From positions 74,338,001 through 74,402,000 of the forward strand of contig OX597814.1 of the NCBI GenBank assembly GCA_951406725.2: a DNA stretch of 64,000 nucleotides, written 5' to 3'. A model generated the notes under the pieces. It saw only the letters and a list, made by a program, of their open reading frames with translations, was not told where the DNA came from and made no database searches. The position numbers and the translations under genes are program-made. Of this stretch, positions 24,147-37,384 are shown in pieces (within the stretch, counting starts at the first letter, position 1; each line of letters opens with the position of its first letter). Source of the DNA: Octopus vulgaris (lineage: Eukaryota).

Positions 24147-25208
24147 CCATATTTTCCGGTGTATAAGCTGCTATATTTTACCTGGGAAATTAAGTGTGCG
24201 GCTTATAGAAAGGTGCATCTAATGTGTGTATTTTTTATAAGTTTCAGGAGGAAAGTAATTTATGTATGGAGATCGAATGATTCCACTGATTGTTTTTTCA
24301 GAGGAAAGGTTGATTGGTGAACAACATCATCATCATCATCGTTTAGTGTCCGCTTTCCATGCTAGCATGGGTTGGACGGTTCAACTGGGGTCTGTGAAGC
24401 CAGGAGGCTGCATCAGGCCCAGTCTGATCTGGCAGTGTTTCTACGGCTGGATGCCCTTCCTAACGCCAACCACTCCGTGAATGTAGTGGGTGCTTTTTAC
24501 GTGCCACCCGCACAGGTGCCAGACGGAGCTGGCAAATGACCACAGACGGATGGTGCTTTTTACGTGCCACGAACGGATGGTGCTTTTTACGTGTCACCGG
24601 CACGGAGGCCAGTCGGGGTGGCGCTGGCAACGGCCACGATCGGATGGTTCGCTTACTTGTCACCGGCACTGGTATCACAGCCGCAATTTCCATTGATGTC
24701 GATCGACTTCGATTTTGGTTCTGCTTTCTGATATCTGATTTGATTTGGTTTGATTTTGATTTTCACTTGCCTCAATGGGTCTTCACAAGTGGAGTTTTGT
24801 GTCCCAAGAAGGAAAGGTGTGTATAAGTCGACTAGCTACATACCAGGTAGAGGCCACGTGAAAGACTACTGCTACAGTACATTGGTACCCAGAAGAAAAC
24901 AAAGCACATTTGTTTTGTTTTACCATCACATTTTGATAATGTCATTTTTAATCTAATAAAGACTTTAATATTGACAAAATGTGTTTGTTGTTGATTATAT
25001 TAAGATAAAATCATAACATCTCATAGTTGTAAAATAAGGCATTTTGAAACTACATACACATCAACAACAAAAACGCTAGCTGCGGACCTGTAGCTCTATA
25101 GGTCTTTTAAACACCGGTGCACTTCATGTGTGGATAAAACCAAAATTTCCCCCCAAATCCAGCTCTGCAGCTTAAATACCAATGTGTTTTATAGACCGGA
25201 AAATATGG
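24147..25208. mobile_element. pogo/Tigger-like non-autonomous DNA element with a nested RTE 3' end
   Basis: TIRs CCATATTTTCCGGTgTATAA / TTATAgACCGGAAAATATGG, TA on the left flank. Confidence 0.75.
24325..24859 (-). mobile_element. RTE LINE 3' UTR fragment
   Basis: (CAT)n on the plus strand, ccgctttccatgctagcatgggttggacgg terminal motif, gtgccaccggcac repeats. Confidence 0.9.
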
Positions 25209-25744: not shown

Positions 25745-26172
25745 TCATCATCATCATTATCATTTAACGTCCACTTTCCATGCTAGCATGGGTTGGACGG
25801 TTCAACTGGGGTCTGGGAAGCCCGAAGGCTGCACCAGGCCAGTCAGATCTGGCAGTGTTTCTACAGCTGGATGCCCTTCCTAACGCCAACCACTCCGTGA
25901 GTGTAGTGGGTGCTTTTTATGTGCCACCGACACAGGTGCCAGACGAGGCTGGCGAACGGCCATGCTCGGATGGTGTTTTTTACGTGCCACCGACACAGGT
26001 GCTAGACGAGGCTGGCGAACGGCCACGCTCGGATGGTGTTTTTTATGTGCCATGGACACAGGTGCCAGACGAGGCTGGCGAACGGCCACGCTTGGATGGT
26101 GTTTTTTTACGTGCCACCGGCACGGAGGCCAGGCGAGGCTGGCACGGCCACGATCGGATGGTGTTTGTTACG
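25745..26172 (-). mobile_element. RTE LINE 3' UTR fragment with about four 61-bp repeats
   Basis: Same terminal motif and tandem units as the other RTE tails. Confidence 0.9.
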
Positions 26173-27165
26173 TACTGGGTGGATTAAGTGAATATGTAGT
26201 CATATGAGAGGGTTTGTAACTGATGTAGCTGTTGCACTGAAATGTAAGGCATTTTGAGAGAAACTGCAAAGATAGAGTGAATGATGGCCTAGATTTTAGA
26301 ATCTGCATTCAGATGAAAATATTTGGTTATCTAGAAGACATGTTAAATGGAGATTGTGGGATATAACTCAGTGATGGTGATTAAAATGAGATGAACAAGG
26401 AACAAGTTCTATGAACTGAGTGGTGTACTAATGAGAAGGGGTGTGTCACTGAAATTGGAAGTAAAGGTGTATGTTGTAGATAGGAATAGAACCAGCAAAG
26501 GGTGTTGTGAATAGAAATGGGATAAAATAGCTGAGTCATGAGTGCAAGAAGGATGAAAGTGACTTGGTGAGAGGAATGATGAAAATGAATGTGGAAGACC
26601 AAGAAAAATATAAAGGAATGGAGAAAGAATTGAAAGCAAAGAGCAAAATAAAGACGAAGATTACAATGGGTCTGCAAGCTAAGCCCAGCATGAAAATGAT
26701 CTTAAGACACTTGCACATTTTTGTGTGTGTGTATATCCACATAAACACATGCTCACATATGTCCAACCTATGCAAACATGGAGAAAGAAAACAAAAATGA
26801 TGGTGAAATAGTGTAGTAAACAAGTGAAAAATCAAAAGTCATTAGAAGCGAGGAAATAAATAATCTGAAAACCTAGCCAATTAGAACACATACACAACAA
26901 TGCAAAGAGAGGAAGAGAGGAAAGAAAAAATGCAACAAGGAGACATTAGTAAGAAATTTGATACATAATCACTTAAACAAGAATAAGACTAACAAATCAT
27001 TATTTTTAACTAGCCAGGAAAAAGTCTACTTTTATTATCAAAATTCCTACTTTGAGAGTTTGAAGATCAAACTACTAAATGCATGTGATTATAGCGTGTG
27101 TGTGTGTGTGCGTGTGTTTGTGTAAAGACTTTTTTTTATCAAAATGCAAGAATAAATGGATTTAC

Positions 27166-27333
27166 TTGTCAAAATGATGACTGTATAGTTGGAGAGGAAT
27201 TTTCAGCAGTTCATCATATAAGCACATTACATTTTGCAAATTTTTTTGTTGTTTTTCCCAGTGAATAACTGAATCCCACAAGCGATCAGCACGGAAGTCA
27301 GTACCAGCAGCATTCAGAGCTTTTCTGTATAAT
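27166..27333 (-). CDS. PRPF39: PRPF39 exon (LYRKALNAAGTDFRADRLWDS...IPLQLYSHHFD)
   Basis: ttttcag acceptor, gtaaat donor, 168 nt. AGTDFRxDRLW and QLYSHHF motifs. Confidence 0.97.
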
Positions 27334-28017
27334 CTGAAAACAAAAGCCAAAAAGATTAACTGCAAAGAAATTTATGCACCATTGTTTTGGTTATTATAGT
27401 AAAATGTCTCCCTGCTGTTACTATCCTTTTTCATTACTCCTATCATTATCTCCTTCTCTTCACACTGGCACTTGACATTCTCCTATACCATCTCTTATTT
27501 CCTACTCTGAGTATCTATTGCAGTCAACCTTGTACAAAGGTGAAGCTTTCCTTTCATCTTGCAGGATACAAGACCTCACAAGTGCAGGTGCAATGATAAA
27601 ACATCCCTTGTAAACTCTGTAAAGTGAATGATGAACAGGCAGAGATAAAGTTGAGAGAACCTTATACTCCTGTTTTTTTTTTGTTTTGTTTTTTTTTTAA
27701 ACATGGCAACTTCTAGTGTTGGTGCCACAATAAAATGCACTCTGTATACTATTACATGACTAGTGTTAGGAAGGGTATCCAACCATACAAATTATGCCAA
27801 AGTAAAACATGAGTGAAGTATGGTCTCCAACTTGCAACTTGTTCAACCCATGCCAGTGTGGAAAGTAGATGCAAAATGATATACAGTTAAAATATTTTAG
27901 AGAATATATATCCCATTAAAAGTATTGAAGAAAAAGCAATTTTACTGAGAATTAAAAATATCAATGTTTGAAAAATCACACTGCAAAGTCATCAAACTTA
28001 AGATTAACACTACTTAC

Positions 28018-28127
28018 TCCTGAATTCTCTCAACATTTTCACACTCTCTTGATTCAGTAACAGAAGAGATGTAATGAAGCCAAAGTTCTACACTTAGAGG
28101 AATAGCCTTTACACCACGCTCAAAGAC
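28018..28127 (-). CDS. PRPF39: PRPF39 exon (VFERGVKAIPLSVELWLHYI...)
   Basis: tttttctccag acceptor, gtaagt donor, 110 nt, phase 0 to 2. AIPLSVxLW HAT motif. Confidence 0.97.
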
Positions 28128-28460
28128 CTGGAGAAAAATATGTAACAGTTACAAACCAAGATAAATCAAGCCCTGCAAACAGGACCGAATAGAGTAAAGT
28201 AGTTGTAAAATGTTGAAAAGTAAATGGGGTAAAGTCGAGCAAGCCGAACAATTGGAAGTACAACCACGTGATTACCGTCGTCAACGAAGCTCTCCTGGCG
28301 ACTGGCACAGTCAAACAGGGACAGTTGACGTTCATCTGTTGTTGACCCTGTAGTATTAGGGATTTTCTTGCTGCAAATCCATAGCCCTCCCTAGCAGTGG
28401 ACAAGTTCAAAATTGTGAAATCTCACAAAAAATCTAAATCACGATTTCAGAGACCCTCAC

Positions 28461-28491
28461 ATCTGCCAGGTCTCCAGTAGATTCATTATGT
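28461..28491 (-). other. Candidate 31-nt poison cassette exon of PRPF39
   Basis: tttttctttgcag|ACA TAA TGA ... GCAGAT|gtgagg. Good splice sites and two immediate in-frame stops after the phase-0 upstream exon. Confidence 0.55.
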
Positions 28492-30982
28492 CTGCAAAGA
28501 AAAATATTACATAATAACACAGTGAGAGCTTGATTCTAAACTAGGCACCTGGCATGAAGCAGGAAATAATCAAAGATCTGTGTGTGTGTGTATTCATGTA
28601 TTATAAATTGGGCATTCTCTAAAAAGTATTGAAGTTATGAAGTGGGTGGCAAATATCAAGTTACTTGAAACTGAGTGTGTGTAAACATGTAAAACAGCAT
28701 GTGAAAATATGTTTAAGTTATTAAGTTTAGAATAGAATGCATCAGTTCTGAGGAACTAGATAATAATACTTTTAGAAACATTGTATGCTAAAAAACGTAA
28801 AACCATTTTAAAACCAAAAGATGTTAGACTTTGAACTTTACTCTATCGATGTCAGCATTTCTAAAAACCTTAACATCTTTTTCTACTATGTTGATATATT
28901 TAGGCAGTAAAATAATAACTCAGAGCATTGGACAAAATGCCAGTGGCATTTCAAGTACAATCCTTTATGTTCTAAGTTCAAATCCCACTGAGGTCAACTT
29001 TGCTTTTTGTACTTCTGAGGTCATTAAAAAAAAATACCAACCAGTCCAGTACTAGAGCTGATTTAATATTCATATAAATGCATTCTAAATATCAATGGAA
29101 TTGTACTAGAGTTTCTATTTTAGTATTATAATCTTGCATATTATTCTAAATGGTAAAAACTTTTCTTTATTCCTATGCACCTTTTCATATATTTGGAGTG
29201 TTTAGACATGATGTGAGTTCTTGGGTGCCTTTAGCAAAGTTTACTGGATTGCAAGCATTCAAACCAGACCACCACCAGTTCACTCTCTATCCAGATTTTT
29301 CCTGCAGACATTGATCTACATGTTAGACATGGCATCAGATGTACTGATCTCAGGAGCCTGAGACTCTGCTCTCCTTTATCCTCAAACTTTTAAATATGCA
29401 TATATAAATACATTAAGTATTTCATTATACAATTATTTCTGTGTAAATTTGAAAAGAAAAAAGTCAGTAGTGATTATGCAAAATAATTCATATAACCTAC
29501 ATGATTACAACTTACTAAAATAGTATTCAGAATTATGTTTCAAGTATAAAGAGTTATTGTTGGATCTTAAAATACAAGATTATTACCTTTGACAGAGCAA
29601 TTAAAAGAATCTAAAGACCACAGACAAGTACAAATGAACAAACATGTAAGCACTATCATTTGTCATAACTAACATTTTCTGAAGAAACCTGGAAAAACAC
29701 CCTTTAAGTAACAGACTTATATCACATTCAGATGAAATCAGAAGATTTATTACATAGCTGAAAATGAGAACTTGCACTAAAGGATTTGGAAGAGGAGTAA
29801 ATATTTTCTATTGTAAATAATGTTTCAAGTTGTTTGAGGATTTTTATGTCTCTGACGTATATTTTCATGAGTCAAATTTTCTAAAAATCAAAGTTCAAGA
29901 TAGTCTAAATCAGAGATAAATGGAGAAAGAGTTTGATATTGTTAACTAGAAATTTATGTTGTCTTCAATCTTGTAAATAATAATATACAAGAGAAATTAC
30001 TTATGAATAAAAAAATATTTAATTATTATCAGAATTATGACTACCCTCTCTCATTAAAAAATTAAATAAACCAACAAAAAAGCTGTTATGCGATTGACCA
30101 ACCTGCTAATACTACCAACCAAATTTCCATCAAACTGCACCTTGCTGTTTTAAAAAATGGAAAACACATTGGACAACATAGTCCTCGATGGTGCATTGTC
30201 TGAAAATCACAAGATGAGATATACACAGCTGGAAGGTTTTTAGAGTTGACACTGAGCTAAAGAATAATAGATTTCGTTTACCAAGGGCATCCAACTACAT
30301 GACTTGCTTCAACAATTTAAAGTTTCAAAACAATACATTAATGGTTATTTTATAGACATCTTCAATAAATTATAGCTAGATTAGGTATCAAAGTTTGTTT
30401 ACTTATCCAGCATATTTAATATTCATTTCATTCAACAGGAAACCTTTTTACAACAAAGCCAAATTACTATTTTCTTTTGTACATGCACAGTATGTTTTCT
30501 TTGAACGAGTCAAAGAGGTGGTTTAGTCAATTATATTAAAAGAGCCTTTATGCAGCTACTCAACTGCCTAGAAATAGCTGTTAAGCTTCCCTTGGAGATA
30601 CATATATCAGGAAAAAAATGCTCAGGGGATATAAAAACTACCAATAAATCTTTTGTCATGTCTGGAGAGATGAAAGACAGGAGGAGAAAATTGAAGAATT
30701 TCAACTCAAATCTACAAGGTACTGAACTATATACAACAAAGCATATAATTTGCCTCCCTACTGCTAATAAATAACAGAATGTGTAAATACACAACATTAG
30801 TACTCAGGCTTTTCAGTCCCTTCTAGGCCAGGATATAAAAAAGATTTAGGTATGCTGATTATTTTTGCTGATTAAACCTTCACTACAAAATACTGAAATA
30901 GTTCAAATATGACTGTACATATAACTATGGTTATTAATACTGTTCGCTCACTTGAGGTTCAAGTTGTAGTTCATTTGATTAA

Positions 30983-32042
30983 CCCTTTCGTTACCAAACC
31001 GCCCGAAAAAAATTTTGTTTAATGTGACCAAACCGCCCAAATTTACCTATTCATATTTAAATGAGAATATCAGAGCAAATCTCTTAAGTACATTCGTGAA
31101 AATACGTATTATAAAGAGTTCAACTACAGTTTTGTACAAAAATCGAAGTGTAATTTTAATTCCGTGAATTTTGGGAGATTTTTTCCCGAAATTTGTTCCT
31201 ATTGTGTTTTCAAAATTTGTAATTCTGACAAAAAATGGATACGAATTTCATTATATCAAGCAGCGAGTCAGAATTCGAAGGATTTTCTACTGAAGACCTT
31301 CATAAATCTAACTCTATGACTGAAAAAAAAAAGCATGTGGTATTTGATAATGAACCTGATGTTTCATTTTCCAAAAGTGAAAACAGTGAATCCGAGAGCT
31401 CCGACAGCGATAAAGAAAATGAATTGGCACCTGAATGGAGTGAAAATTTTAAAACTGTTTCTTTCAGTGATTTTTCTTAAGAAACTGGACCAAGCCACAG
31501 ACTTTCCCAGAAGAGTAAAGCCTTAGACTATTTCTTTTCACTTTTTCGAATGAGCCTATTTGAAATCATTACGGCAGAAACAAACCGTTACGCTAAATGT
31601 AAACAAAAACGAAAGAAAGGATACTTCGTGGTTTCCCATAACCTTAAATGAAATTAAGACTATTTTGCCATAAATATTATTATGGGTATCAGAAAGTTAC
31701 CCAGAATAACAAATTCTATCGTAAAATTTTCTTGTATACCCAATTGAATATTAGCTAATAACCCATTTTCTATAGCGATGTTTGAACAAAATTTTAATAA
31801 TTTTATATTTTGTTGAATTTACCTGTATCTACCTGCAATTAGAGTCACTTTATGACAAAAATTATAGTATAGAATTGGTTGAGAACATTTCATTAAATTA
31901 TCTTCCAAAATTCACGTTAATATATTGATAAATAAAAAAGTTATAGTTGTTTAATGAAACCAGACTAAATTTATGATTATGTTAGAAATTAATTGAAACA
32001 CATAAGGGGTGTATTTTGGTCAGAAATATAGTAACGAAAGGG
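30983..32042 (+). mobile_element. Internally deleted piggyBac transposon
   Basis: TTAA-CCCTTTCGTTAC ... GTAACGAAAGGG-TTAA: perfect 12-bp TIR plus TTAA TSD. Acidic N-terminus (SSSESEFEGFS), then a broken FEIITAETNRYA...IIMGIRKLP transposase remnant. Confidence 0.92.
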
Positions 32043-33168
32043 TTAAGATATTCAATCAAAATTCCAATGAAATTAAATATATTTGCATAGTGCAGTATAT
32101 AGAGCATGACAAATTCAGAACACAAAGTACATATAGAGGACAAACAAGAAAGGAAATATGTTCATATGTTAATTTAATATATCCTTTCATGGGTTTCATT
32201 CATTCATGAATCATAAAATTTATACAATAATCAGTTGATTTGATGATGTAATCAGACTAATAGATTTATTCATTTATGAAACTTGTGTAAGGATATATTG
32301 AACAAACATATCTCCACTCTTGTTTTCCTAAATACACTGTACTATGAATATATATTTGTTGAAGATTAATTTAGGATTCAACACAGACACATTAAAGTTA
32401 AGTGAATGCTAACACCCATGCTAATAAAACTATAAAAAATATTTGTGAGATAGTATATTAGTCAATGTCACATTAGATGGGATATAATTGGACCAATACG
32501 TTGTATTTAATTAACTTGGATAACATGAAAATGAAAGAGCCAAATTGATTTAGTATCCTCAGCCGCTGGTCTTTTTAGCAGGCATTTGGAAACTGCAGAG
32601 CATTTCACTACATACCAAAACCTATACAGCTACGTGGTACAGAATCATTGACACTATTCCAGAGTAATTTCAGATGGGATGCCTTGATTGAATGCTCCAA
32701 GTATTGTGGATTGATCACATTTGACAAACTTATTTGCCAGATGATCGTTCAGAAATAGAGGTTGTGTCATGTAAACTGAATAGCTAACGAGTGCTATCAA
32801 ACTACTTACATATTTTTGACAAACAACAATGGAAAGTACACAAAATAGGGCTGAAAAGGATCCAAAAATATCCATAAGAGAGGCAAGAGAGACATTAATG
32901 AATGTATCCTAGTTTCAGAATAGGTACAAGGCATGTTGTAAGCAGCAACTAAAAGAGCATCCAGTCAAGGCTATACCAAAAAAACCAGCTGACTCATACC
33001 AGTATGGAAAAGTAGATGTAAAATGCTGACAAACATTTGACAGAAAAACTAGCAGACATAGAAGGAAACTGCCCATGTATTACCTAAGGAGAGTGGGTAA
33101 GAAAGGGAATGAAAGAGAATGGCTTAACTTTGCTTAAAGGAATTATGATGATACAGTACTATCTAGAG

Positions 33169-33349
33169 TAGCGGTTCTCAACTGGAGGTCCATATAAGAT
33201 TTTGTTAAAATTTATGTGCAATAATTTGGTTTACTTCTACAATACACAAAATATTTTAATTTTTTTATATACAGCGAATGGTTATGGATGTCCAGTAGAG
33301 AAAATAAGAATCAGAGGGGTTCATAGGCAAAAACAATTGAGACCCACAG
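33169..33349. mobile_element. Short degraded hAT-like MITE
   Basis: Imperfect inverted ends agcggttctcaa ... ttgagacccac. Confidence 0.4.
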
Positions 33350-36300
33350 TATTTAATTCCTAGTTGTATGGAATACTATGCTATATACTCTCACAAGATT
33401 TTGGTGCCAGAATTTACACAACTGCAACTCTACTTTTCCAGTTATTTCATCAAGCATGCATCATCTCCCTTGAAATATTTGTTTACTTTCAACTTTAGAA
33501 TGGCAAACCTTGGAAGAAGATAGTTTCATTTACAATATATATTACAATATATATTTGGTGTGAATTAATCTAGGATTGAAAATGTCAAGAGTGAAATTAG
33601 AAATATAAAAATGTTATTCAAATATTTAGTCATGAGTGGTATGTGCTAATTAAAACTTTTTTTTGGTATTTGGAAACTGCAGAACATTTCACTATGTATC
33701 AAAATTTACATTTAATATCTATACAACTACATGGTACAGAATCATGGACATTATTTTATTTTTGTCACTATAATTTAAAGTCAATAGTCTCTTAAGTCTT
33801 CCATTAAACAAATCATAAATTTAAATGTAATATTTCCATGTTTCTAATCACAAAGAGCAATTCTAGTGGAAACCTGCTCATTAACCTCAGGTTGAGAAAT
33901 TGAAACCAAATGTAAACAGATTTTTGATTAAGTTAAGTGTAAATTTAGATTAGTCAATATTTTTTTTAAATGTGAAGAAAGAAACTAAAAAGAAAGATAA
34001 CCCACCTATCAACAAAAATAGCTATAATAAAGATCTCTATACTTTGAATAGTCAAAAATTTAACCTATTAAGATAAAATAATACAATCAATTATGAAGAT
34101 CAGATTTCAGAAAAAGCTAGAAGAAATATCCCAAGATCAAATAGTATTCATTTACATTAGTGAATTTAATAAGATATATAGTGCCTGTCGATAAAATCAC
34201 CAAGATCAACACTTCCACTCAGAATTTAGAAAAAAAGAAAATCCCAATCCAGTGTAACTCGTTTGAACATTAATATTGCTAACAGTGAAAGATTACAAAA
34301 AGGATAATAATGAAACACAACAAATGAATAAATACTGGATTGAGACAATTTCATAATTGCAGGTAATAATACCTTTTGAAAATTTTTACTAATTAACAAT
34401 TGAAAAGAGATCATTACAAAAGCTACTGAATAAAACAAACTTTACTAAGAATAGAAAAACATTCTACCAACTTTTGATCTACTGAATGACAATGTTTTCT
34501 GATAAATTTTTCACTATCATTATCCCTTTCAACACCAACTCACCAGATTAACACCTTAGCATTTAAACCAGCCTTATCTGACCCTAATATTCTACCTATT
34601 TCATGTTTAAGTCAGCCAGATCAAGCTCTCAAACTTAACCTACAATGTCATTCTGCTGCATCTTTAAAATCTCAAAGCTACAAGATAAGACATGATTAAT
34701 TCAAAACAATGTAAATAAGCATAATTTGAGTGCTCTTTATAAGCAGCTGAGCTGAGCTACTAATTGTAGTAGGAGACTGGGTGCATCTTCTTTGAGAATG
34801 CGGCCATCAAACCACAAAATGGTCCATCAGTAACTTAGAGCTTAATTTTTATCTGACCCATTGAGAGGCTCTGTAATATTTAAATGTAAGTTTTTGTCTT
34901 TTATTAATTAGAAAGTTTATTTTGCAAACCTTCACATTATTGATTATTTTAAAAGGTAGAAAGTATTCTTGCTTGAAATTAGATCACAAAAGGGTTAATG
35001 GTTAAAGCATACACTAAATAATGGTGAGCCACAGCTAGACAGCTAATAGAATGTAGAAATTCAGTTTAATTTGACAAACTAGATATCTGATCAGGGATAT
35101 TCAACAACTAGAAAGTTTGTAAAAATGATAACCAAAGAAAAGTTATGTACAGAAAAGTTATGTCCACTTGGAGTGGTTGCAGCATATTAGTGTTTTAAAA
35201 ACTCCAGCCATCTTACTAAAATTTTCGTATATTTACATATCTATAAAGTTGTTGGTGTTAGGAAAGGCATCCAGCAGTAGAAAACAAGCCAAAAATGAAA
35301 TTTATGAACAAGATGTGTGCTTCTAACCTATCTGTATCAGAAACTCTGAATAAAAAACTAAATTGGATCATGACAATCCATCCAACCCATGTTAACAAGG
35401 AAAGCAGATGTATGAATATCACAGGATTACTAATTCTCTGCTATGACATTATTTATCAACCCACTTTTACCCGGTTTCTTTGAAACTAATGTTTAAAACA
35501 TACTTACAGAATAATTTTAGGCATAGCCATGTGGCTACAAAATTTGCTTTAAAACCACAGTTTTGTGTGCAATCAATGTGCAACACACTTGAGCAAGTAA
35601 CTTCTAGTCTAGCTTCAGGTTGACCGATGTCTTTTGAGTGGTATTTAATTGGCAGAAACTATGTAAAAGTACAGGTGTGTGTGTGTGTGTGTACTATCTG
35701 ATTAAAAAAGATTAATAAAATAAATATTGGGGGGAATGAGTGACTAAAATACTCATGAAGTTGTCCACATTAGTGACTAACCAGGAAAAGGGGAATTTGC
35801 TTTTTAAATTTCAAAGAGAAACCTCTGAAATAGTGGAACCATTTTAACTAAAACTTACATGGTAAATAAACAATTACTGCATAAATTCTATTTTTTTAAA
35901 ATTCCATTCCCAAGATAAAAATGGTTATGATATTACTAATGCAAAACCCTATAATGTATATTTTACAAGGGTAGCATTTGATATATACAGAAGCAATTAG
36001 TGCAATGTCCTAAAAGTTAAAACTCTGCAACAGAGTTTGACTATTTATAAAGTATACAATCTTGGTTGCAACTGTTAGGCATCAAAACAAAAAAAGCAAC
36101 CACTCAAGGCTAGTATATAAGAATGAAAAATAGAAGACTTGAATATTACATTTTTCTGTACTAAAACAGAATTATTAGAGCAACAGGATAAAGGTTAGAA
36201 CTATAAAATAAGAGGTTACTTATGCATCACCTAATTTGTAAAACTACTTAACTCTTTGAAATTGAAGGCCACTGATGTTTCTACACTGCAGATGGTAAGA

Positions 36301-36728
36301 ATTATTTTTATAAGATATAAATAAAAAAAAAGTTGTGTTATTTTTGTAAAATTATAACAAAAATTGATCTCGTTACACAAGGTAAATCTGAGGTGAAACC
36401 AGCCTTTGTTTTAGCACCCAAAAAAAAGGGGACATACCCAGTTGTTTAACGGGTTAGATATGAAGGAAAATCTATCCTCATATCATCAGTTAAATACTAT
36501 ATAAATACACTTATTTGAAATGAAGTTGTGTATATAAACACTTCAGTGGGTTAATCAATGTAAATATTGTCTAAAGACTAGTTTCTAAATAAAATAAATA
36601 TTCAAACTTAGTAATTAGAAAGCATTTTTAAAAACTAATTTTGTTATGCAATTATTTTTCAGAATTTACACATAATAGAGGACTGTTGAAATTAATTTCT
36701 CCAAATTTAAGAAAAAATTAGAACTTAC

Positions 36729-36854
36729 AGTAATTGCTTTATCCACCTCATCATTTTTCTTTAGGATATCAGCAAACTTTTTCCAGTAACCATAACAATA
36801 TGGATAATGATCAAAGAAAGCATCAAATGCTTCTTGCGCATCTTCAACATTATT
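36729..36854 (-). CDS. PRPF39: PRPF39 exon (NNVEDAQEAFDAFFDHYPYCYGYWKKFADI...), the most 5' exon found
   Basis: tcacag acceptor, gtaagt donor, 126 nt. YPYCYGYWKK signature. Confidence 0.97.
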
Positions 36855-37384
36855 CTGTGATAAAAGAACAAAGTTATTTTAGTTTCAATAGTTAATGAAA
36901 TATAAAAATTTTCAATCAAATATATTTAAGATTTAAATGGACAATACATGGAACCTGTATTGCTTTGTTGACACTAAAGAAAAAGTCTAAAGCACACTTA
37001 TAATAATGGATAATGTTGCAACTGGTTATTGTTAGTAGAAAGGATAGATCCTAAAATGAACACTAACTGTTTTCCATTGTAGCTGAAAACATTTTCAACG
37101 AGATAAAATTTAGATTAGTCAATTTATCACCCAGGTTTGCTAATTCTGTTTGTAAAAATGAATTTTTAAAAAATTGATTTGAAAAGTAATTCCTTATTGG
37201 GAAAACCTAGCTTGAAAAATGAATTATTACTAGAGTAAATTTCTATTTTTAAAACAATAGAGAGTAATCGTAAATGGCAGAAAGTCTAGTGTTAGGCCTA
37301 ACTGCTTCATAGTATGGTGTTATGACCATGTATTCTAAATTCATCCCTCAGATTCAAAAAGATTAATATAAATTTCTGATCTGG

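Follow-up and report, generated by a model that had tools for sequence, protein, structure and literature searches.

Does a splicing-factor gene of a mollusc carry, inside one of its introns, an exon that spoils its own message, and if so, how old is this arrangement? The question is raised by a CpG-rich stretch lying just upstream of an exon whose translation contains VFERG, in the 64,000 nucleotides of Octopus vulgaris DNA analysed here (contig OX597814.1; hereafter the window, to which all positions refer unless otherwise indicated). The original prediction, made from the letters alone, took this stretch (hereafter the module) for an ancient poison-exon device of the gene PRPF39, composed of a mini-exon (a), a second possible exon (b) and an alternative acceptor (c). 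A check of the minus-strand sequence found the letters, coordinates, lengths and stops of all three as described (Table 1). The host gene is indeed PRPF39, on the minus strand: the flanking exons have matches in mouse PRPF39, PRPF39 of Octopus species comes closest among proteins, and the genome search returned one locus only for this splicing factor.

Table 1. Exons, intron and candidate splicing features around the module in octopus PRPF39.
Feature	Positions	Strand	Length and remarks
PRPF39 coding exon, human exon 3 equivalent (upstream flank)	36729..36854	-	126 nt; mouse PRPF39 6g70 aa 114-149, E 2.4e-12
PRPF39 intron, human intron 3 equivalent	28128..36728	-	8,601 nt; splice joint skips 8601 nt
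Candidate mini-exon (a)	28461..28491	-	31 nt; starts ACA TAA TGA, stop at codon 2; sequence only
Cassette exon (b)	28276..28390	-	115 nt; between CTGCTAG and GTAATC; putative 5' boundary at 28390
Possible alternative acceptor (c)	28128..28172	-	45-nt extension; TAA at codon 8; chance-level
VFERG coding exon, human exon 4 equivalent	28018..28127	-	110 nt

Contig joints connect the exon at 36729 to 28127 across the whole intron in all four sequencing runs examined (4/4). The available part of the PMC13408128 supplement gives a primer for human exon 8 that encodes IKRPYFHVK; this peptide is the start of the window exon at 10767-10603, hence matched to human exon 8, and by counting exons back from there, the module's intron is therefore human intron 3. 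The upstream exon has the same length in octopus and human (human length from the PMC9827562 supplement, as far as available). The next exon in the 5' direction lies beyond the window, about 31 kb away, at G000:C1:74406273-74406392.

Among the three candidates, exon (b) is the one with evidence from outside the window. Its donor, ACG/GTAATC (the slash marks the exon end), sits 148 nt before the next acceptor, and at least 28335-28276 is exonic in protein models: the N-terminal 20 aa of two isoform X2 proteins, P0006 (O. sinensis XP_029635355.1 and O. vulgaris CAI9715355.1) and P0009 (O. bimaculoides XP_014790339.1), are identical, correspond to this DNA and continue into VFERG. Both are predictions, of a kind for which RNA-seq is the usual basis, and the O. 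vulgaris entry may have been transferred from O. sinensis. In P0008, a third Octopus model, the protein does not begin before the next exon, a start compatible with (a), (c) and intron retention alike. Independent of the Octopus models is P0014, a protein called from a Logan contig, which groups with cephalopods (98/98) outside Octopus and Argonauta (100/99) and whose source we infer to be a squid or cuttlefish. Its last 21 residues before VFERG fit exon (b) with six minimal substitutions and one 11-nt gap, ending exactly at the donor, for a mapping cost of 26.1, against a minimum of 36 (mean 41.5) in 41 control intron windows and a minimum of 35 in 60 shuffles. In octopus, the matching DNA passes from one reading frame into another and, in one of the two, through a stop codon; the constraint is therefore on the RNA sequence and not on the peptide. 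Two of the six minimal differences could be A-to-G, with cephalopod RNA editing as a possible cause. Given the independent transcript-derived support for its donor, exon (b) does go beyond chance, and its splicing to the VFERG exon via the 28276 donor is indirectly shown by these models and this contig-derived protein, for the donor side only.

A pattern made of the acceptor and the VFERG exon retrieved 46 metagenome loci, of which 28 have both exons with the intron, two have them joined and 16 come without the upstream exon; their taxon labels are based on resemblance. From 24 annelid-like loci, 19 were used (one was too short, and four near-duplicates were excluded), and all but one (18/19) contain a cassette of 109-138 nt with near-invariant splice sites, all three phases being represented; 14 of these 18 cassettes stop at codon 6, two have a later stop and two cause a frameshift. 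Pairwise identity among 14 annelid-like loci is 0.76 in the last 300-50 nt versus 0.57 upstream (lower in 91/91 pairs), and 0.55 at the 3' end of the next intron (lower than the module in 36/36 pairs). Nucleotide conservation above the flanking intron, without conservation of the frame, is found in the annelid-like loci and, by peptide mapping with the 11-nt gap against octopus intron windows, in cephalopods.

Elsewhere in the collection, termite-like and hymenopteran-like loci are identical at 0.96-1.0 throughout, too alike to show a peak, and global identity in the insect-like, crustacean-like and L020/L025/L043 groups is at background level; for L020, L025 and L043, the atlas gave only generic TPR clusters. 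Two crustacean-like loci, L023 and L036, have a conserved block 270-150 nt before the acceptor (z 10.9), resembling a short cassette ending CAG/GTA. Three insect-like lineages (L013, L014 and L032) show a candidate donor TAAG/GTGA 205-169 nt before the acceptor, with TAA at the exon end, and the otherwise divergent L020 and L043 have in common a 20-nt acceptor-like motif about 480-460 nt before the acceptor, upstream of an ACG/GTAAT donor. Three mollusc-like proteins, P0139 (Mya arenaria X2), P0017 and P0018, begin with M-VFERG or have a short tail after exon 3 unlike the intron start, hinting at alternative exons in intron 3 of bivalves and gastropods.

On the vertebrate side, two cassettes are present in locus L028: one of 69 nt with a stop, and one of 163 nt whose end lies 127 nt before exon 4. 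Tails derived from intron 3 occur in pig, seal, goat, sparrow and wombat proteins as well as in a turtle-cluster protein, and four of these map to L028 at 87-100% identity; a tail made of VR and a stop, present in 16 vertebrate proteins, was not counted, being ambiguous between the 69-nt cassette and intron read-through. For human, the accessible part of the PMC9827562 supplement has an rMATS row for a 163-nt exon at chr14:45096595-45096758, included at 0.57-0.60 versus 0.32-0.39 in one data set, and the same source gives a regulated retention of intron 3 at 0.60-0.80 versus 0.38-0.46. The ultraconserved element uc.376 (45096547-45096836; PMC12660711 supplement, available part) covers this exon, so that the ultraconserved sequence named in the original prediction for the equivalent mammalian intron does exist, in human PRPF39 intron 3. 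The other statement on mammals, that mammalian PRPF39 has NMD-coupled exons, is right about the existence of a poison exon but the one studied is in another intron: lying between exons 8 and 9 in human and mouse, it contains a stop, is sensitive to NMD and depends on TRNAU1AP and PRPF39 (PMC13408128, in the part available). A PRPF39 poison exon is also described in PMC11389820 and PMC6582350, the accessible parts of which give no exon number, and in the literature found, as far as its text is accessible, the self-regulation shown for PRPF39 concerns intron 8 only. The octopus module is not this published exon, the equivalent of exon 8 (10767-10603) lying five introns downstream, and the octopus equivalent of intron 8 (10602 to ~9465) is without a comparable motif pair. 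Our literature search, with most subscription papers and several supplements outside its scope, found no account of an invertebrate PRPF39 poison exon, nor of the NMD, regulation or function of the human intron-3 exon.

The human cassette under uc.376 and the octopus module are alike in gene and intron, in a break of the frame, which for octopus is predicted with the proposed acceptor, and in a weak donor of the G/GTAAT type, at a distance from the exon-4 acceptor of 127-128 nt in vertebrates and 148 nt in octopus. Both probably also have a smaller stop cassette further upstream (69 nt in L028; 31 nt for the octopus candidate). They are unlike in exon length (163 versus 115 nt), in intron length (about 650 nt versus 8.6 kb) and in their sequences, which cannot be aligned. 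For orthology with the uc.376 cassette, we find the same intron and a similar donor position, and we do not find detectable sequence homology.

The same division applies across lineages: intron and donor position recur, and the sequence does not align between phyla. Octopus and the vertebrate intron of L028 give no BLASTN match and a local alignment z of -0.8, and no in-position match between phyla is significant; the one clear alignment in 91 cross-lineage comparisons is that of two crustacean-like loci. This is a point in favour of poison cassettes having arisen independently in intron 3 of cephalopods, annelids, arthropods and vertebrates, to the same function by convergence, and in SR genes, unproductive events are documented to turn over (PMC4379411, available part). 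Against such convergence stand the shared intron and the similar, weak type of the donor: in the 14 lineages listed, position -1 is G, position +4 or +5 is mismatched to U1, and the distance to the acceptor is 115-215 nt (L035 is without such a donor). These cross-phylum donors were picked by score or by eye. The best donor score has a mean of 6.4 in 15 introns versus 4.4 in 54 upstream windows (p 0.0025) and exceeds 300/300 shuffle means, with a window chosen after looking at the data and an approximate scoring matrix; taken by themselves, the donors of octopus and vertebrates score no better than shuffles. Also against it is the recurrence of ACGGTA, the octopus donor hexamer, 100-240 nt before the acceptor in 4/14 other loci versus 0/56 upstream control windows (p 0.001, or about 0.03 when three loci that may be related are treated as one, three of the four being unplaced taxonomically); in 34 kb of octopus PRPF39, this hexamer occurs once on the minus strand.

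We regard independent origins as unlikely, while giving them real weight for want of an alignment between phyla. Most likely, the cassette under uc.376 in vertebrate intron 3 and the octopus cassette are one ancestral switch whose sequence has diverged. A broader reading would make PRPF39 intron 3 a pan-bilaterian, possibly opisthokont-wide, sensor of weak 5' splice sites, in which a poison cassette predating the protostome/deuterostome split, with uc.376 as its vertebrate form, would let PRPF39 and the U1 snRNP read their own activity; we put this forward tentatively, as a possibility a little short of even. If true, the intron-3 sensor would be a second loop, older than the published intron-8 circuit.

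What would inclusion of exon (b) do to the message? All six non-canonical forms computed stop early: the stop comes 41 codons after exon 3 when exon (b) is included via 28390, at codon 2 with (a), with (a) and (b) together, or with a 216-nt exon from (a) to (b), at codon 8 with (c), and at codon 21 when the intron is retained. Eleven coding exons follow the VFERG exon. Three in-frame, stop-free acceptors with weak pyrimidine tracts (28386, 28347 and 28335) would avoid the stop. In the mechanism that we propose, the 28276 donor would be spliced to the VFERG exon, the step for which the database models and P0014 provide indirect evidence; splicing from exon 3 into exon (b) would use the acceptor at 28390 or 28491; translation would then stop 41 or 2 codons after exon 3, with the 11 coding exons downstream, and the message would presumably go to NMD. 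Human PRPF39 promotes weak 5' splice sites in a GC-rich context (PMC9808567, in the part available); the octopus donor is weak and its surroundings are GC-rich (49% GC in the 150 nt around the 28276 donor versus 32% upstream), and therefore higher PRPF39 would favour inclusion, leaving less productive message. By competing with the normal path, the 28276 donor would probably also slow the removal of the intron. NMD and self-regulation of octopus PRPF39 via exon (b) are proposed here by analogy with the human/mouse intron-8 exon, which is likewise a stop-containing alternative exon of PRPF39 and whose NMD sensitivity and self-regulation supply the mechanism, albeit from another intron. Taken together, we think it quite likely that PRPF39 intron 3 contains, in exon (b), a conserved cassette subject to alternative splicing, with a predicted premature stop, likely NMD and probably the role of a feedback brake.

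The weak internal donor could also act mainly as a decoy that keeps the intron unspliced (detained or retained), with exon inclusion as a minor by-product, a reading compatible with the feedback cassette just described. The retained intron also gives a stop, and human intron 3 is retained at 0.38-0.80 in a regulated way (PMC9827562, available part). Among 24 sequencing runs, 20 contain the module stretch, none of these being recorded as RNA and 14 being RNA by guess only, and joints were examined in four runs chosen for containing the module. An unbroken contig leads from the VFERG acceptor through the whole module into the intron in 4/4 of them, an argument for retention that is weakened by the choice of the runs, which are only guessed RNA and may contain DNA or pre-mRNA. 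Contig depth, which is not a measure of RNA level and cannot rank parts in runs selected for the module, is higher in the module than in the next intron in three runs. None of the 15 joints listed (15 of 20, in four runs) uses 28491, 28461, 28390, 28276 or 28172, both canonical junctions being present; one has to keep in mind that contigs drop rare forms. Spliced use of the donor, on the other hand, is recorded in cephalopods and humans, which speaks against a mere decoy. The evidence suggests intron retention as a second unproductive outcome, the octopus data being a weak hint; as the main role of the module, we consider it rather improbable.

Exon (b) might instead be an alternative first exon, or a re-initiation site, giving a 570-aa N-terminally truncated PRPF39 (the X2 isoform), with the CpGs marking an internal promoter. 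Indeed, the X2 ATG of the Octopus models lies in exon (b), octopus and P0014 alike have an ATG and an open frame leading in phase into VFERG, which fits a truncated protein, the Mya arenaria X2 starts with M-VFERG, and the CpG observed/expected ratio of the module is 0.82. These points are countered by the peptide, which is not conserved, the 11-nt gap shifting both frame and start codon between octopus and P0014; by the annelid-like cassettes, which keep their acceptors, with conserved lengths in all phases; and by the human exon, a skipped cassette with an upstream junction. We thus hold a first exon or re-initiation site to be distinctly improbable.

The two other candidates fared differently from exon (b). 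The mini-exon (a) is preceded by TTTTTCTTTGCAG and followed by GTGAGG, and its acceptor could also serve the 216-nt exon ending at 28276; acceptor and donor pairs like it number six in 31,755 nt of PRPF39 introns (about one per 5 kb). A bivalve-like locus, L022, has an acceptor resembling that of (a) 335 nt before the acceptor, a weak match (E 0.5). Exon (a) is suggestive as a plausible poison mini-exon. An upstream AG similar to (c) exists at 5/11 acceptors examined, some acceptor coordinates being a few bases off, and (c) was dropped as a special feature, being at chance level. The poison-exon module first proposed therefore survives through exon (b), which had been ranked second and is the conserved unit; (a) keeps the status of a candidate and (c) is unremarkable.

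In composition, the module does stand out from its intron. The cluster of about ten CpGs was confirmed (10, at 28186-28442): 10 per 266 nt versus a mean of 1.6 in 30 other windows of the same intron, none of which is as high (0/30) or as GC-rich (0/30), while with 383-nt windows, 1/21, starting at 30826, equals the module's CpG count. The description as free of repeat similarity also holds, with one match in the 2.8-Gb genome, a copy count that is a lower bound at the sensitivity of that search; this single match in its own genome speaks against a transposon remnant or multicopy repeat. Rfam covariance models gave no matches at E up to 5 in positions 27300-37000, and none in four other loci; the RNA fold is without signal (z -1.0 to -0.3), a 7-bp inverted pair in exon (b) not going beyond shuffles. 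An intronic snoRNA or another Rfam RNA was ruled against by these zero matches and the unremarkable fold. A neutral intron in which splice-like motifs arose by chance and splicing is noisy, or a remnant of a transposon, would agree with the frequency of motifs like (a) and (c) and with the missing fold signal but not with the single copy, the nucleotide-level match to a non-octopod cephalopod far beyond controls, or the conservation of the same place in annelid-like loci and amniotes, which makes it very improbable and, for (b), largely refuted.

The octopus module is a real, conserved and probably ancient unproductive-splicing element. To our knowledge, few alternative splicing events are common to protostomes and vertebrates, and most ultraconserved elements are without a known function; the octopus module supplies uc.376 with a positional equivalent in an invertebrate and with a function that can be tested. 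It also draws attention to a regulatory exon of human PRPF39 that has apparently escaped study, separate from the intron-8 exon. What would have survived deep time without the sequence is the intron, the distance of the donor, its weakness and the broken frame. This type of mechanism is already known, which limits the surprise: SRSF5/B52 has kept its unproductive splicing in animals and fungi (Lareau and Brenner 2015, PMC4379411, in the part available). There too, a poison cassette and intron retention occur in one orthologous intron of a splicing factor over very long times, position being better kept than sequence. The two cases differ in the protein, an SR protein versus a U1 snRNP-associated HAT protein, and in that NMD was shown for SRSF5, whereas it is predicted for octopus PRPF39.

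A few minor features of the locus were also recorded. The constitutive donors of exons 3 and 4 (36729 and 28018) are GTAAGT without G at -1; the cassette donor, with G at -1 and poor +5/+6 positions, is of the opposite type to these competing constitutive donors. Multicopy repeats, recognised by very high contig depth and loose ends, lie in intron 3 at about 28960-29007, 30980-32046, 33200-33260 and 34580-35300, and the repeat near 31000-31600 is CpG-rich. The following long intron contains tandem units of 63 nt and 27 nt, at 25909-26173 and 24546-24597, inside two copies of a GC-rich interspersed repeat.
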